DNA of 64,000 bases from Candidatus Omnitrophota bacterium (GTDB lineage: Bacteria; Omnitrophota; Gorgyraeia; Gygaellales; Profunditerraquicolaceae): NCBI GenBank assembly GCA_022710715.1, contig JAKLGJ010000001.1:42041-106040 (forward strand). The letters are read 5' to 3'. The notes beneath the pieces are model-generated. The model did not search any database. It was not told the DNA's origin and worked only from the letters and a program-made list of their open reading frames with translations. A program made the translations under genes and the position numbers. Position 1 is the first letter of the stretch. Each line of letters starts with the position of its first letter. Positions 47,945 through 53,022 of the stretch are shown here, piece after piece.

Positions 47945-48178
47945 ATGTTCGAAATAGTCATGATCAGCCCGGAAGAAATCCTCTACCAGGGTAAAGCCGA
48001 GAGCGCGATCTTTCCCGGAGAGTCGGGAGTTTTTGAGACGCTTTCCTATCATCGTCCGGTGGTCAGCCGTCTGGTGGGGGGGAGCGTGTTCATCGATAAC
48101 CGGGAATATCCCATCCGGCGGGGATTAATGGGTTTCAGTAATAATAAAGCCACCGTCATCGTGGAGAGAAACGCATAA
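47945..48178 (+). CDS. atpC: F-type ATP synthase epsilon subunit, beta-sandwich domain only
   Basis: MFEIVMISPEEILYQGKAESAIFPGESGVFETLSYHRPVVSRLVGGSVFI matches the AtpC N-domain. About 77 aa, with no C-terminal helical hairpin. The ORF-track TTG start at 47900 is rejected. Confidence 0.7.
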   Translation: MFEIVMISPEEILYQGKAESAIFPGESGVFETLSYHRPVVSRLVGGSVFIDNREYPIRRGLMGFSNNKATVIVERNA

Positions 48179-48396
48179 TGGATAAAAACCTGGCATTGCT
48201 CCTGATCTTTCTGGCGTGTATCGCGGTGCCTTCCTGGGTTTTCGCGCAGTGCGGTAAGTCGAGTATCGCGGCCCTGGGAAGAAATCCTTCGGCGGCGCCG
48301 AAGGTCTTTACCGCGATGATCTTTGTGATGGTTTTCGCCGAAGCCGCGGCGATCATTTCCATGCTGGTGGTGTTTCAGCTGTTTTCAGGGCAATAA
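48178..48396 (+). CDS. atpE: F-type ATP synthase c subunit (atypical helix 1)
   Basis: 72 aa, two TM helices. ALGRNPSAAPKVFTAMIFVMVFAEAAAIISMLVVF resembles the RQPE loop and helix 2 with the conserved carboxylate (E). Helix 1 lacks the GxGxGxG motif. Confidence 0.65.
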   Translation: MDKNLALLLIFLACIAVPSWVFAQCGKSSIAALGRNPSAAPKVFTAMIFVMVFAEAAAIISMLVVFQLFSGQ

Positions 48397-48488
48397 CAAC
48401 GTGAAACTATACACCTTGCGCAAATTGCACCTAACGCTAATAAGGAATTGCGTTAGTGTGCCCTGTGGTCAAATTGCGCAAGTGTTTC

Positions 48489-48509
48489 GTCCCGCGGCTG
48501 CCGCGGGAC
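48489..48509 (+). promoter_or_regulatory. Perfect 9-bp stem / 3-nt loop hairpin immediately upstream of the atpF SD
   Basis: GTCCCGCGG-ctg-CCGCGGGAC, 3 nt before AAGGAG (48512-48517). Confidence 0.45.
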
Positions 48510-48524
48510 TCAAGGAGTTCTAAG

Positions 48525-50715: not shown

Positions 50716-51567
50716 ATGAGACTGCTTTCGGCGATCAAAAAGGATATGGATTTCAATCTCAACCTCTATAATCTCATCGAGGTGCTCAAAGAGATCGCCA
50801 TTGCCCAGTATAAGATCCTGGAAAAGAAGCTCAAGACTTTTGACGAAGTGTTCAACCATCTGGGGACCATTTTCGACCTGTTGCAGGTGGGAAATACCGG
50901 GCATCCGTTGCTGAATCCCGCCGGCCGCCAGGCGGGCGTTATCGCGCTTACTTCCGACGCCGGGCTTCTGGGTGGTTTGAACATGAGCGTGATGAGCCAG
51001 GCGATCAAGGAAGCGGACAAGGTCAAGGGCCGCTTGATCATTGTCGGCGAGAAAGGGCAGATGTACGCTCAAGAAACGGATCTGCCGTTCATCGTTTTTA
51101 AAGGCGTCAAAGACGAGACGCGGTTCGAGCAGGCGCAGCAGTTGCGCGATTACGTGCTGGCCGAGGAATTAAGCGGTAAATTAGGCCAGCTCAAGATCGT
51201 CTATCCGGTGGCGCTGTCTATCGTTTCGCAGCAGGTCAAGACGCTGCAGTTGTTCCCTTTTTCCACCGCGGAACATTTGCAGCGCAGGCCGGCGCCCGCG
51301 ATCGCCGCCAACGGCGTGATCCTGGAATCGGCGGTCGGCGATATCCTGGAATACTGGATACATCTGTTCCTGGCGCAGAAATTCTATCAGATCTTCGGGC
51401 TTTCCCGGCTGGCGGAGTTATCGGCCCGGTACAATCACCTGGAGACCAGCAAGGGCAAGATCGATAACCTGAACAAAGAGTTGAAGCTGCAGTATTTCCG
51501 GCAGCGCCATGAAATGATCGATAAGAATATCCGCGAGCTTTTCTGCGCGCGGCTGGCGTTTAAATAG
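50716..51567 (+). CDS. atpG: F-type ATP synthase gamma subunit
   Basis: VIALTSDAGLLGGLN (ITSDRGLCGGxN motif) and a C-terminal helix. Confidence 0.8.
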   Translation: MRLLSAIKKDMDFNLNLYNLIEVLKEIAIAQYKILEKKLKTFDEVFNHLGTIFDLLQVGNTGHPLLNPAGRQAGVIALTSDAGLLGGLNMSVMSQAIKEADKVKGRLIIVGEKGQMYAQETDLPFIVFKGVKDETRFEQAQQLRDYVLAEELSGKLGQLKIVYPVALSIVSQQVKTLQLFPFSTAEHLQRRPAPAIAANGVILESAVGDILEYWIHLFLAQKFYQIFGLSRLAELSARYNHLETSKGKIDNLNKELKLQYFRQRHEMIDKNIRELFCARLAFK

Positions 51568-51608
51568 CGCCCACAAGGGCGCACTTGCGCAATACCTTGT
51601 TAGCGCAA
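51567..51608 (+). promoter_or_regulatory. Hairpin plus TTGCGCAA motifs between atpG and atpD
   Basis: GCGCCC-acaa-GGGCGC hairpin at 51567-51584, then CTTGCGCAATACC and TTAGCGCAAGG directly upstream of the atpD SD. Confidence 0.4.
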
Positions 51609-51624
51609 GGTGAAAGGATGCATA

Positions 51625-53022
51625 ATGGACCAGCGCATTCCCAGAAAGAACGGTACCGTCGTTTCGGTGCAGGGCCCGGTCGTCGACGTAAAATTCGACA
51701 AGCAGGAGGATATCCCGGCTATTCTGGACAACATCAATACCCAGGCGATGGACGGACGGAAAGTCGTTCTGGAAGTGGCGGAACATCTGCCCGGGAATCT
51801 GGCCCGCTGCATCGCCATCAATTCCACGTTCAACCTGCAGCGTAGCGCTACCGCCGTCCCGACGGGCCAGCCGATCGAGATTCCCGCGGGAGACAGCATT
51901 TACGGCCGGATCATCAATATCTGGGGAGACCCGATCGACCAGAAGGGAGAGATCGCCCCCGGAGAACGTCTGCCCATACGGCCGCCGCGCGTGGCCCAGC
52001 GGTTGTCCAATAAGGAAAAGGCGGAGAAGTTCGAGGTGCTGGAGACCGGGATCAAGATCATCGATCTGCTGTTCCCGCTGGTGAAAGGTTCCAAGAGCGG
52101 GATCCTCGGCGGCGCGGCCCTGGGGAAAAGTATTCTTACCCTTGAGATCATCCATAATATCGTCAAGAAGCACAGCGGTTCCTGCGTCTTCGTCGGGGCG
52201 GGAGAGCGCATGCGCGAGGGCAATGAGCTGTATTACGAGCTTGAGCGCAGAAAGATCCTGGATAAAACGGTACTGATATTCGGGCAGATGAACGAACCGC
52301 CCGGGGCGCGTTTCGGGGTGGCTTTCAGCGGCGCAACGCTGGCCGAGTCCATCCAGCGCAAGAAACAGGATGTGCTTTTGTTCGTGGACAACATTTTCCG
52401 TTTTCTGCAGGCGGGTTCGGAGATCTCCAGTTTGCTGGGGCGTCTTCCGTCGGAAACCGGGTACCAGCCGACGCTGCTCTCCGAGGCCAGCGAGTTCCAT
52501 GAGCGGATACGTTCTACCAAGGAGACCGGCAGTTCGATAACGTCGGTGGAGGCGGTCTACATTCCCGCCGACGATCTGACCGATCCGGCGGTCGTGGCCA
52601 TTTTCGCTTTTCTCGATTCGCTGATGGTCCTTTCGCGCCAGCGCATCCAGCTGGGTCTGTATCCGGCGATCGATCCTTTGCTGTCATCCAGCGCCAACCT
52701 CGACGTGGATATCGTGGGGACCCATCACTACGCGATCTCGCAGGATGTCATCCGCACCCTGCAGCGGTACGAAGAGTTGCGGCGCATCGTCATGGTCATC
52801 GGTATCGACGAACTGTCCGCTTCCGATCGCATCATTTACGAGCGCGCGCGCAAGCTGCAGAATTACCTGACCCAGCCGTTTTTTGTCGCCGAAGCGTATA
52901 CCAACAAGCACGGCGAATACGTCAGCATCCCGCAGACCGTGGAAGGCTGCGAAAAAATCATCTCCGGTCATTATGACCGCCGGCCGGAGCAGGATTTCTA
53001 CATGATCGGTGTTGCGCCATAG
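51625..53022 (+). CDS. atpD: F-type ATP synthase beta subunit
   Basis: GPVVDVKF...[18 protein letters not shown] (Walker A) ...[13 protein letters not shown]...[10 protein letters not shown]...DELSASD. ATG at 51625 behind AAAGGA (alternative GTG at 51610). Confidence 0.85.

Follow-up and report, generated by a model that had tools for sequence, protein, structure and literature searches.

A probable F1/c-ring motor without subunit a, encoded between a giant surface protein and a type II secretion-like operon in Candidatus Omnitrophota

Introduction

Rotary ATPases are the textbook ion-coupled machines. Could such an enzyme keep its c-ring and operate without ion flow? To our knowledge, the only F1 heads with another established role are those of the Mycoplasma gliding and MIB-MIP motors, in which no recognisable Fo parts are left. 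The question is raised here by six F-type ATPase genes of a Candidatus Omnitrophota bacterium. They lie in a 64,000-nucleotide stretch of DNA, hereafter the window (GenBank assembly GCA_022710715.1, contig JAKLGJ010000001.1, positions 42,041 to 106,040 of the forward strand). The genes encode subunits α, β, γ and ε, a c-like proteolipid and a fusion of subunit b with the C-terminal half of δ (b-δC). A sequence-only reading of the window had described them as an ATP synthase operon of non-canonical order and composition, without subunit a.

We conclude, with a probability of roughly 0.6, that the locus encodes a non-respiratory ('symbiotic') F-type ATPase of Candidatus Omnitrophota, acting as an ATP-hydrolysing F1/c-ring motor without an ion path. 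Two parts of this conclusion can be held more firmly. The complex is very probably not a chemiosmotic ATP synthase or ion pump. With the same high probability, it is an integral part of a system comprising a giant protein and components like those of type II secretion systems (T2SS). The locus type was first noted in 2023 (Seymour et al., PMC10066038). Its subunit-level anatomy, the repeated loss of the c-subunit carboxylate under purifying selection and a conserved anchor module appear to be undescribed in searchable papers. Taken together, these three features are a concrete, testable case for an ion-independent F-type motor.

Results

Six F-type ATPase genes form one packed cluster

Subunits were assigned by comparing Pfam and NCBIfam hidden Markov model (HMM) scores with the curated cut-offs (Table 1). 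In the list of open reading frames (ORFs), the six genes are tightly packed on the + strand in the order ε, c, b-δC, α, γ, β. This is the order given by the sequence-only reading, and both model collections agree with it on each gene. The E-values exclude chance as an explanation for the matches. For b-δC we took the ATG at 48525, rather than the GTG at 48456, as the start codon; this fits the length of 238-245 aa seen in 36 orthologues. The β gene was taken from 51625 and the upstream GTG at 51610 was not used. The universal cyclic gene order is a-c-b-δ-α-γ-β-ε. The window order is this cyclic order opened before ε, with a deleted and δ reduced. Hence, the composition is unusual, as had been claimed, but the order is not scrambled.

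To define the family, homologues were collected with the γ protein as the query and a threshold of E≤1e-5. This yielded 385 sequences; where names are given they are only Omnitrophota or Omnitrophica. An identical γ is encoded on a 1.62-Mb JGI metagenome contig (3300010429, Ga0116241_10000002) and in the MAG GCA_035914815.1, under the name Candidatus Omnitrophota bacterium. A scan of one genome per GTDB species recovered loci from 48 species. All are Omnitrophota, a few being mislabelled as Planctomycetes, Deltaproteobacteria or PVC group. A γ profile run against 1.84 billion representative proteins found 133 clusters at 50% identity with E≤1e-30, over a continuous range of scores.

Amongst PDB entries, α and β are closest to canonical bacterial F1 subunits (479.6 bits for the best match to β). 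The catalytic residues are intact, in agreement with the sequence-only reading. Thus, α carries GDRLTGKS (Walker A) and SVSRIG (the arginine finger region), β carries GERMREG, and the P-loops are complete. These motifs are invariant in the family: GGA[AG]LGK[ST] (β Walker A) and GER[MI]REG each occur in 42 of 42 β sequences, and SVSRIG in 43 of 43 α sequences. The γ subunit is divergent, and serves as the marker of the family; it passes the Pfam model and scores 88 bits against the 194 required by the TIGR01146 equivalog.

Reduced forms of ε and δ had also been described, and both descriptions held. The ε subunit is the β-sandwich domain alone, with the C-terminal helical domain missing. Its length is 75-79 aa in 34 of 37 orthologues; the other three, with longer inferred starts, reach at most 90 aa. 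It passes the Pfam model and scores 29 against a cut-off of 67 for the NCBIfam equivalog. The b-δC protein has an N-terminal transmembrane (TM) helix, a b-type coiled coil and the C-terminal domain of δ/OSCP. The OSCP/δ profile (PF00213) is matched solely at positions 103-170/172 (E=2e-17), and the δ N-domain is absent. A family profile, made from an alignment of b-δC orthologues, was searched against the PDB. Profile positions 2-152 align with b subunits, and positions 150/167-237 only with the C-terminal domain of δ/OSCP (residues ~87-175/178). The mycobacterial b-δ fusion is matched in two stretches, 4-154 and 375-442. Hence, the missing piece is the δ N-domain of ~100 residues.

In canonical enzymes, the δ N-domain clamps the N-terminal helices of the α subunits. 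Alignment of the window α to PDB entries starts at residue 10-11, equivalent to residue 18-19 of Bacillus-type α. The N-terminus is proline-rich in the window, and both its length and its sequence vary among 43 orthologues; the δ-binding helix is missing or unconserved. Since the δ N-domain is gone and the α N-terminus is variable, these two partners appear to have been lost together.

Subunit a is absent throughout the family

Subunit a supplies the half-channels and the stator arginine in canonical F1Fo. No scanned ORF of the 64-kb window matched ATP-synt_A (PF00119) or AtpI in Pfam, which bears out the claim that neither is encoded in or beside the operon. Apart from GspF and three proteins of an upstream glycosyltransferase cluster, no window ORF has as many as four TM segments. 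Gaps within the cluster (128 and 236 bp) contain no + strand ORF of at least 50 aa besides alternative upstream starts for ε and b-δC. The same holds on a wider scale. An adjacent atpB gene, which would have contradicted the sequence-only reading, was sought in ~50 related loci, spanning γ identities from 100% down to distant relatives; no a-like multi-TM ORF was found within ±10 kb. In an excerpt of the source data of Seymour et al. (PMC10066038), genome 221 is listed with K02111 and K02112 and not with K02108; this is a single, anecdotal genome.

Two candidates for a hidden replacement were considered and rejected. First, ORFs in the gaps of orthologous clusters encode toxin-antitoxin, nucleotidyltransferase, four-helix-bundle or Y1-transposase proteins, or a divergent b-δC. 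Second, the giant protein upstream of ε has just an N-terminal signal and one C-terminal TM segment. Neither its TM helix nor that of b has a conserved charged residue that might substitute for the a-subunit arginine, and these helices are unlikely to provide a stand-in. Separately, we note that four loci carry inserts between ATPase genes (L012:1351-3114, L016:2218-2562, L019:1240-1665 and L020:6883-7416). The inserts are of the toxin-antitoxin/nucleotidyltransferase, four-helix-bundle and Y1-transposase types, and the ATPase genes are undisrupted.

More distant relatives (γ scores of 115-134 bits against the profile) have the order α, ε, c, b-δC, γ, β. Subunit a is again lacking. A large protein is encoded before the ATPase genes, and GspE(PilZ)-GspF-GspG follow them. 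Because the lack of a is shared by distant relatives with a different gene order, it is a stable trait of a deep cluster lineage and no accident of assembly.

The c-like proteolipid is conserved and its carboxylate is not

The sequence-only reading would have failed if the 72-aa protein were not a c subunit. The family profile of this protein aligns, over its full length, with the F-type c subunit 9itj_H in the PDB (E=1e-6). Its GRNP loop and FxEAxAI segment fall on the canonical loop and carboxylate, respectively. Given the full-length alignment, and the register of loop and carboxylate, the protein is a genuine c homologue. The c-subunit fold is recognised by Pfam, and the TIGR01260 score is 18.6 against a cut-off of 43.95. 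As described previously, the window protein has a carboxylate in helix 2 (E55) and no GxGxGxG motif in helix 1. The latter helix also has no membrane Glu or Gln. The cytoplasmic loop, which faces γ/ε, is invariant in the family (L33-G-R-N-P-S38, plus P41). The periplasmic ends are nearly so (M1, R3 and N4; F66, Q67 and F69).

In canonical c subunits the membrane carboxylate is essentially invariant and needed for ion transport. Across 38 species of the present family, the equivalent column contains E (20 species), Q (11), V (3), L (2), G (1) or S (1). Starting from an ancestral E, Fitch parsimony on a neighbour-joining tree of α plus γ counts at least nine changes. Where the column holds L or V, both TM helices are devoid of acidic residues. 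Purifying selection on c persists regardless of the residue present: dN/dS is 0.00-0.19, and this range includes the L042/L033 pair, both of which have Leu at the carboxylate column. An invariant loop, purifying selection and a variable carboxylate together suggest that a ring able to bind γ/ε has been kept and the ion site has not. The carboxylate is dispensable in the family, and the pattern of conservation is inverted relative to that of a working ion rotor.

Nearly all of the 48 species have intact copies of the six genes, and strong purifying selection acts on each gene, with dN/dS values of 0.04-0.18 for ε, 0.02-0.15 for α and β, and 0.02-0.26 over the five genes other than c. The earlier statement that this is not a pseudogene cluster is in keeping with the complete range (0.00-0.26) and the invariant catalytic motifs. 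Two loci deserve separate mention. Locus L035 has two tandem c genes (988-1468). Locus L047 has an in-frame stop in c (7477-7689), due to either a sequencing error or a pseudogene.

The ATPase genes are embedded in a larger conserved operon

The T2SS block downstream of β had been regarded as a mere neighbour. This view was not upheld; the ATPase genes are packed in a larger conserved operon running from the giant protein, through the ATPase, to the T2SS-like genes. As far as contigs reach, the 48 loci share a string that begins with the giant-protein C-terminus and continues with ε, c, b-δC, α, γ and β. After β come MshEN, GspE(+PilZ), GspF, an MA-type peptidase, GspG, two minor pseudopilins, GspK, PilM-PilN and (GspM). 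Hence, wherever a locus has enough flanking DNA, a giant surface protein is encoded on one side of the ATPase genes and, on the other, an operon resembling those for T2SS or type IV pili (T4P). The stop codon of β is 2-57 bp from the MshEN/GspE genes. In the window, genes overlap, abut or are closely spaced in an unbroken + strand string from 23205 to 62310. When positions 47500-53800 were scanned for promoters and terminators, the counts were close to those expected from shuffled sequence, and no internal terminator was convincing. An Rfam search of the giant-ε and c-b gaps found no match.

The stand-alone MshEN gene has a conserved position across the loci; we note that six species (loci L005-L007, L025, L032 and L037) have two in tandem. 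No secretin, GspC or prepilin peptidase is encoded in the window T2SS-like cluster. The block ends at 62310, and rpsO and pnp are next (62400-64000).

The giant protein ends in a conserved anchor module

From N- to C-terminus, the protein encoded upstream of ε comprises a signal/TM segment, a beta-propeller-like region, dozens of Ig-like repeats, a single C-terminal TM helix and a cytoplasmic tail of ~30 aa. Weak Vgb_lyase/beta-propeller-type repeats occur at about aa 570-680. The Ig-like repeats are of the Kre9_KNH / Reelin subrepeat-B type, each ~95 aa long and, by tblastn, ~40% identical to each other. As the only membrane-directed segments are the N-terminal signal and the C-terminal TM helix, ~7,500 residues are predicted to be extracytoplasmic. 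The C-terminal ~1000 aa are 33-65% identical to sequences upstream of ε in related loci.

In contrast to the repeats, the last ~250 residues of this region show strong conservation between species. We refer to this segment as the anchor module, or X module. It consists of an Ig-like beta-sandwich (consensus VNPS..YLP.EV..D..GL..YD..YY..L.PGE..F.VEV.DVW), a three-helix bundle that carries the motif SREQHIGIYRQN, then a TM helix, and finally a short tail in which FP is conserved. An AlphaFold2 model of the last 330 aa of the giant protein has predicted local distance difference test scores of 72-91 for the sandwich and helices. A Foldseek search of the PDB with this model returned just generic sandwiches of Ig-like or carbohydrate-binding-module type (E≥0.02), and the module matches no Pfam or NCBIfam family.

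The module is not always fused to a giant protein. Elsewhere it is a separate signal-peptide protein of ~270-300 aa; for example, P0153 is encoded between a 10,669-aa giant gene and ε. In the distant relatives L055 and L057 the anchor is a protein of 431-434 aa, with two sandwich-helix repeats, encoded directly before the ATPase genes. Locus L057 has an additional 250-aa anchor paralogue. Fused or separate, the module is always encoded directly upstream of the ATPase genes, also where α comes first. This constant position, in either form, suggests a dedicated and undescribed component of the system. If the c-ring or b stalk has a membrane partner, the module is the obvious candidate.

Elements associated with cyclic di-GMP and the remainder of the window

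A riboswitch aptamer for cyclic di-GMP (c-di-GMP) precedes the + strand gene string. Upstream of it is a near-consensus sigma-70 promoter, with TTGACA- and TATAAT-like elements (~22827-22855), and downstream is a terminator-like element formed by a stem plus T9 (23088-23119). In seven related loci, no Rfam family scored above threshold. Counting the riboswitch, the stand-alone MshEN protein and the PilZ domain on GspE, there are three c-di-GMP sensors along the unit. The riboswitch would, we infer, be part of the ATPase system.

The first gene after the riboswitch encodes a 398-aa protein. It matches the REP-associated tyrosine transposase model NF047646 with 76.6 bits, just under the cut-off of 80, and has a 250-aa extension. 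Such a transposase-like protein is odd cargo for a c-di-GMP riboswitch. Further upstream, positions 1-22800 hold a 22-kb cluster of the glycan/lipopolysaccharide type. It encodes many GT2 and GT4 glycosyltransferases and two GT9 heptosyltransferases, together with methyltransferases, a DegT aminotransferase, a radical SAM-SPASM protein, WbqC, PIG-L and an MraY-like GT4. The GC content falls to 0.47-0.51 at 20-24 kb, compared with ~0.57 elsewhere in the window. The + strand carries all convincing genes of the window, which fits the one-strand-per-replichore organisation reported for complete Omnitrophota genomes (West-Roberts et al., preprint).

Table 1. Features of the ATPase locus and its surroundings. 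Positions are those of the window, except in the last row, where locus-specific coordinates are given.
Feature	Position	Strand	Length	Basis and remarks
c-di-GMP-I riboswitch aptamer	22987-23072	+		RF01051, 54.9 bits against a gathering threshold of 35; GGC variant, 53.7 bits
First gene after the riboswitch	23205-24401	+	398 aa	N-terminal 150 aa resemble NF047646
Unannotatable ORF	24398-24886	+	162 aa	Overlaps the start of the giant gene
Giant surface protein	24879-47708	+	7609 aa	ORF, Pfam, hydropathy
Anchor module (X module)	46971-47705	+		C-terminus of the giant protein; cross-species conservation
ε	47945-48178	+	77 aa	PF02823 (ATP-synt_DE_N) only, residues 4-75, E=2e-9
c-like proteolipid	48178-48396	+	72 aa	Start overlaps the ε stop; PF00137, 31.8 bits against a gathering threshold of 24
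b-δC fusion	48525-49244	+	239 aa	PF00213 (OSCP) and b-subunit models
α	49234-50715	+	493 aa	Overlaps b-δC by 11 nt; TIGR00962, 533.5 against 484.45 bits
γ	50716-51567	+	283 aa	Abuts α; PF00231, E=5e-34
β	51625-53022	+	465 aa	TIGR01039, 562.4 against 462.85 bits
MshEN-type c-di-GMP-binding protein, stand-alone	53079-53603	+		PF05157, E=3e-16; NF053729, 62.6 against 38 bits
GspE/PilB-type assembly ATPase with N-terminal MshEN and C-terminal PilZ	53600-55759	+		PF00437, E=3e-129; PF07238, E=1e-11
GspF/PilC platform protein	55765-56988	+		PF00482, E=3e-59
Secreted Peptidase_MA_2 protein	57002-57865	+		Pfam; synteny, conserved between GspF and GspG
Major pseudopilin GspG, two minor pseudopilins (one GspJ-like) and GspK	57884-60268	+		PF08334, PF07963, PF11612, PF21687
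PilM-PilN fusion (GspL-like) and GspM	60272-62310	+		Pfam, translation
Distant-clade loci with α first	L055:4317-10643; L057:5033-12358

Discussion

A motor without an ion path

The label 'ATP synthase operon' is probably wrong as a description of function, given the lack of a in ~50 loci, the dispensable carboxylate, the lost stator contacts and the packing of the genes into a larger conserved operon. We propose the following instead. Judged by sequence, the F1 head (α3β3, γ and a short ε without inhibitory helices) should be complete and catalytically competent. A ring of c-like proteolipids would hold it at the membrane, with b-δC as a single peripheral stalk. Lacking a, the complex would have neither half-channel nor stator arginine, and the ring should be unable to load or unload ions; hence, neither gradient-driven ATP synthesis nor ion pumping would be expected. 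ATP hydrolysis would turn a γ-ε-c-ring rotor against the b-δC stator. We infer that hydrolysis is the sole mode of operation and that the complex has a functional link to its neighbour genes. It would be a motor, or at least an ATP-driven conformational engine, for an envelope machine of the same transcription unit. That machine would comprise the giant Ig-repeat surface protein, anchored in the inner membrane, and the T2SS/T4P-like pseudopilus apparatus. Control of the whole unit apparently lies with c-di-GMP, acting through the riboswitch, the MshEN protein and PilZ on GspE.

How the motor might be put to use is a matter for tentative suggestions. From its anatomy, and by analogy, it could run as a rotary motor on ATP, with a mechanical link from the c-ring or stalk to the anchor module or T2SS platform; we put this at somewhat below even odds. 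The choice of either as physical load or partner of the c-ring is speculative. More doubtful is an envelope machine of an uncharacterised kind, in which F1 would spin an ion-free c-ring and torque would pass mechanically across the inner membrane. The periplasmic face of the ring would then be the working surface, as the conserved periplasmic ends of c, the single-TM X module and the T2SS platform may indicate. The X module would stand in for subunit a in the genome, and perhaps also in the complex. During attachment to prey or host, the giant adhesin, the pseudopilus or both would be moved, wound or extended by the torque.

Several points weigh against an F1/c-ring motor without an ion path. 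E55 is kept in the window, as is the carboxylate in 20 of 38 orthologues, and ion coupling in this organism may be possible. The γ subunit falls below the NCBIfam equivalog cut-off, and its fit to the c-ring is a prediction. The search for an a gene covered the window and ±10 kb of ~50 loci. The link from the ATPase to the giant protein and T2SS parts is one of co-location and co-conservation only. The fold search with the modelled anchor gave generic Ig-like matches and, from these, no mechanistic clue. Finally, we know of no machine in which a c-ring is a purely mechanical rotor.

The ATPase could alternatively energise export or assembly, much as FliH-FliI-FliJ do. F1 would sit on the c-ring via b-δC, and ATP would be used to unfold, hand over or activate the secretion of the giant protein or pseudopilins. 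Genes placed between a 7609-aa exported protein and a secretion-type machine are what one might expect in this case, and α and β are homologous to the FliI/SctN families. Moreover, b-δC shares the architecture of the V/A-ATPase E subunit, which has been proposed for FliH too (Pallen et al., 2006, as cited in PMC2881411). However, α and β are both kept, along with full γ and ε, which suggests F1 rotary catalysis and not a homohexameric translocase. FliI/SctN scores are also far under the cut-offs, no export-gate homologue is encoded in the cluster, and the ordinary N-terminal signal peptide of the giant protein suggests Sec export. We therefore regard an export energiser as unlikely.

The main rival is a conventional ion-coupled F1Fo. 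Subunit a, and perhaps AtpI, would be encoded elsewhere, and the odd gene order and reduced subunits would be lineage quirks. The sequence-only reading left a choice between this and an unusual complex. The latter option is the one we favour; the former is at odds with the family-wide data. What speaks for an ordinary enzyme is that α and β score above the canonical atpA/atpD cut-offs and are nearest to canonical bacterial F1, that the window c keeps E55, and that working pumps or synthases can have a short ε (Chlorobi, Bacteroidetes) or a long b without δ (N-ATPases). Conversely, no a gene is in or near ~50 loci, Q, L, V, G or S has replaced the carboxylate at least nine times under purifying selection, and the ATPase cluster is packed with T2SS genes in one operon. 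The phylum also has other enzymes for the conventional task. A separate 'respiratory' F-type clade exists (PMC10066038), and the chemiosmotic role in these lineages commonly falls to V/A-type ATPases (Omnitrophota preprint). Of 176 complete Omnitrophota genomes, 125 have α/β and 30 a γ recognisable by KEGG orthology, and V/A-ATPases are widespread (preprint). An ordinary ion-coupled enzyme is thus quite improbable. A decaying ATP synthase remnant, which has lost a and is heading to a pseudogene, would account for the missing δ N-domain and ε C-terminal helices, the variable carboxylate and the stop codon in c of L047, but is effectively refuted by six intact genes in nearly all 48 species with dN/dS of 0.00-0.26, by invariant catalytic motifs and by synteny kept across deep divergence.

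If the locus does encode an F1/c-ring motor without an ion path, it would be a natural experiment in the use of a c-ring without ion flow, and in the conversion of an ATP synthase into a mechanical motor. The Omnitrophota complex retains its c-ring and b/δ stalk, has no a, and is losing the carboxylate under strong selection. It is tied to c-di-GMP signalling, and also to the giant proteins and pilus systems through which these ultra-small, uncultured bacteria are believed to act as predators or parasites. The scheme provides testable hypotheses for structural work and for the sole available enrichment culture (V. archaeovorus). If torque is indeed passed on mechanically across the inner membrane, surface motility or predation by a diderm bacterium would be powered by a rotary motor that runs on ATP, and the complex would stand as an evolutionary intermediate between ATP synthases and the F1-like X0 motors of Mycoplasma.

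Comparison with known systems

The canonical F1Fo enzyme and the present complex have homologous α, β and γ subunits, ε sandwich, c hairpin, b coiled coil and δ C-domain, the same cyclic gene order and the same catalytic residues. Unlike the canonical enzyme, the window complex is without a, AtpI, the δ N-domain, the α N-terminal helix and the ε C-terminal helices. In addition, its c subunit has no glycine packing motif, the carboxylate is unconserved in the family, and the genes are found inside a secretion/adhesin operon.

The export ATPase of flagella and type III secretion systems is a single catalytic subunit, of the FliI/SctN family, that forms a homohexamer. Membership of this group was rejected: the window has two distinct subunits, α and β, and these score 160-184 bits with FliI/SctN models that have cut-offs of 380-720.

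Some traits of the complex are not unique when taken singly, since a long b with a δ C-part and a short ε each have precedents. Half-length ε is known in Chlorobi and Bacteroidetes from the cited literature. N-ATPases are encoded by the operon atpDCQRBEFAG; they have no δ gene, and the C-terminus of their long b aligns with the C-terminal part of δ (Dibrova et al., 2010, PMC2881411). The window cluster resembles them in these respects, and in having ε before c-b-α-γ. N-ATPases are also thought to function as ATPases without ATP synthesis. Indeed, b-δC matches the N-ATPase model TIGR03321 (E=1.7e-9), though below its cut-off. Unlike the window complex, N-ATPases are ion pumps that keep a, atpR, atpQ and a full set of Na+ ligands in c. 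The alt_F1F0 models score below their cut-offs on window α (494/750), β (491/752) and γ (35/282). With these scores, and with no a, atpR or atpQ, N-ATPase membership was rejected.

The closest known counterpart is the Omnitrophota locus type of Seymour et al. (2023, Nat Microbiol, PMC10066038). These authors described non-respiratory ('symbiotic', sF-ATP) F-type ATPase clusters beside clusters for type IVa pili (T4aP). Such clusters occur in 56 of 111 Velamenicoccia species, including V. archaeovorus, and 57 of 66 contigs have the two within 10 kb of each other; the authors proposed that they serve in attachment to, or motility on, host cells. The phylum is the same, α/β are likewise within 10 kb of a T4P-class cluster, and giant ORFs occur in the same genomes. 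All of this points to the window locus being an instance of that type. The 2023 analysis differs from ours in consisting of α/β phylogenies and co-location only. Its text and supplements make no mention of a c-like gene, the missing a, the b-δC fusion, a variable carboxylate, the anchor module or adjacency to a giant gene. In later searchable literature we found no mention of the c subunit, the missing a, the b-δ fusion or the giant-gene adjacency. The pilus genes were labelled T4aP by Seymour et al., whereas GspK, the GspJ-like protein and GspM of the window look more T2SS-like.

The F1-like X0 ATPases of Mycoplasma are the remaining point of reference (Beven, 2012, PMC3369863; Toyonaga, 2025, PMC11864180; Berlureau, 2026, PMC12994834). 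Type 2 is the gliding G1-ATPase of M. mobile and Type 3 is required for MIB-MIP (PMC3369863, PMC11864180, PMC12994834). In the α tree of Seymour et al. (PMC10066038), symbiotic α is placed with Mycoplasma Types 2/3. This membership is not borne out by the curated models. All Mycoplasma-type models were below cut-off (NF045863, 416/600; NF045858, 412/850; NF045936, 302/520; NF045934, 391/570), and the PDB entry for M. mobile G1-β scores 338 bits compared with 480 for canonical β. Type 2/3 membership was thus rejected on HMM cut-offs (MMOB1660/1670, MSC_0619/0618) and on composition. Unlike the window cluster, which has c, b and the δ C-domain and no 12-TM protein, the seven-gene Mycoplasma clusters have no recognisable c, b or δ and encode unrelated X0 proteins (a 12-TM protein, an 87-kDa membrane protein and a 19-kDa protein). 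The Omnitrophota host also differs from Mycoplasma in being a diderm with a T2SS-like system. The likenesses are at the level of function and organisation. In both groups an F1-derived head would be repurposed for a surface function, and the genes lie beside those for the surface proteins served; in M. mobile these partners are giant surface proteins as well. Type 3 α has lost the N-terminal helix that binds δ/b, according to the Mycoplasma papers, and the Omnitrophota α is similarly without it. For these reasons, the Mycoplasma motors seem the best functional analogy for the Omnitrophota ATPase.

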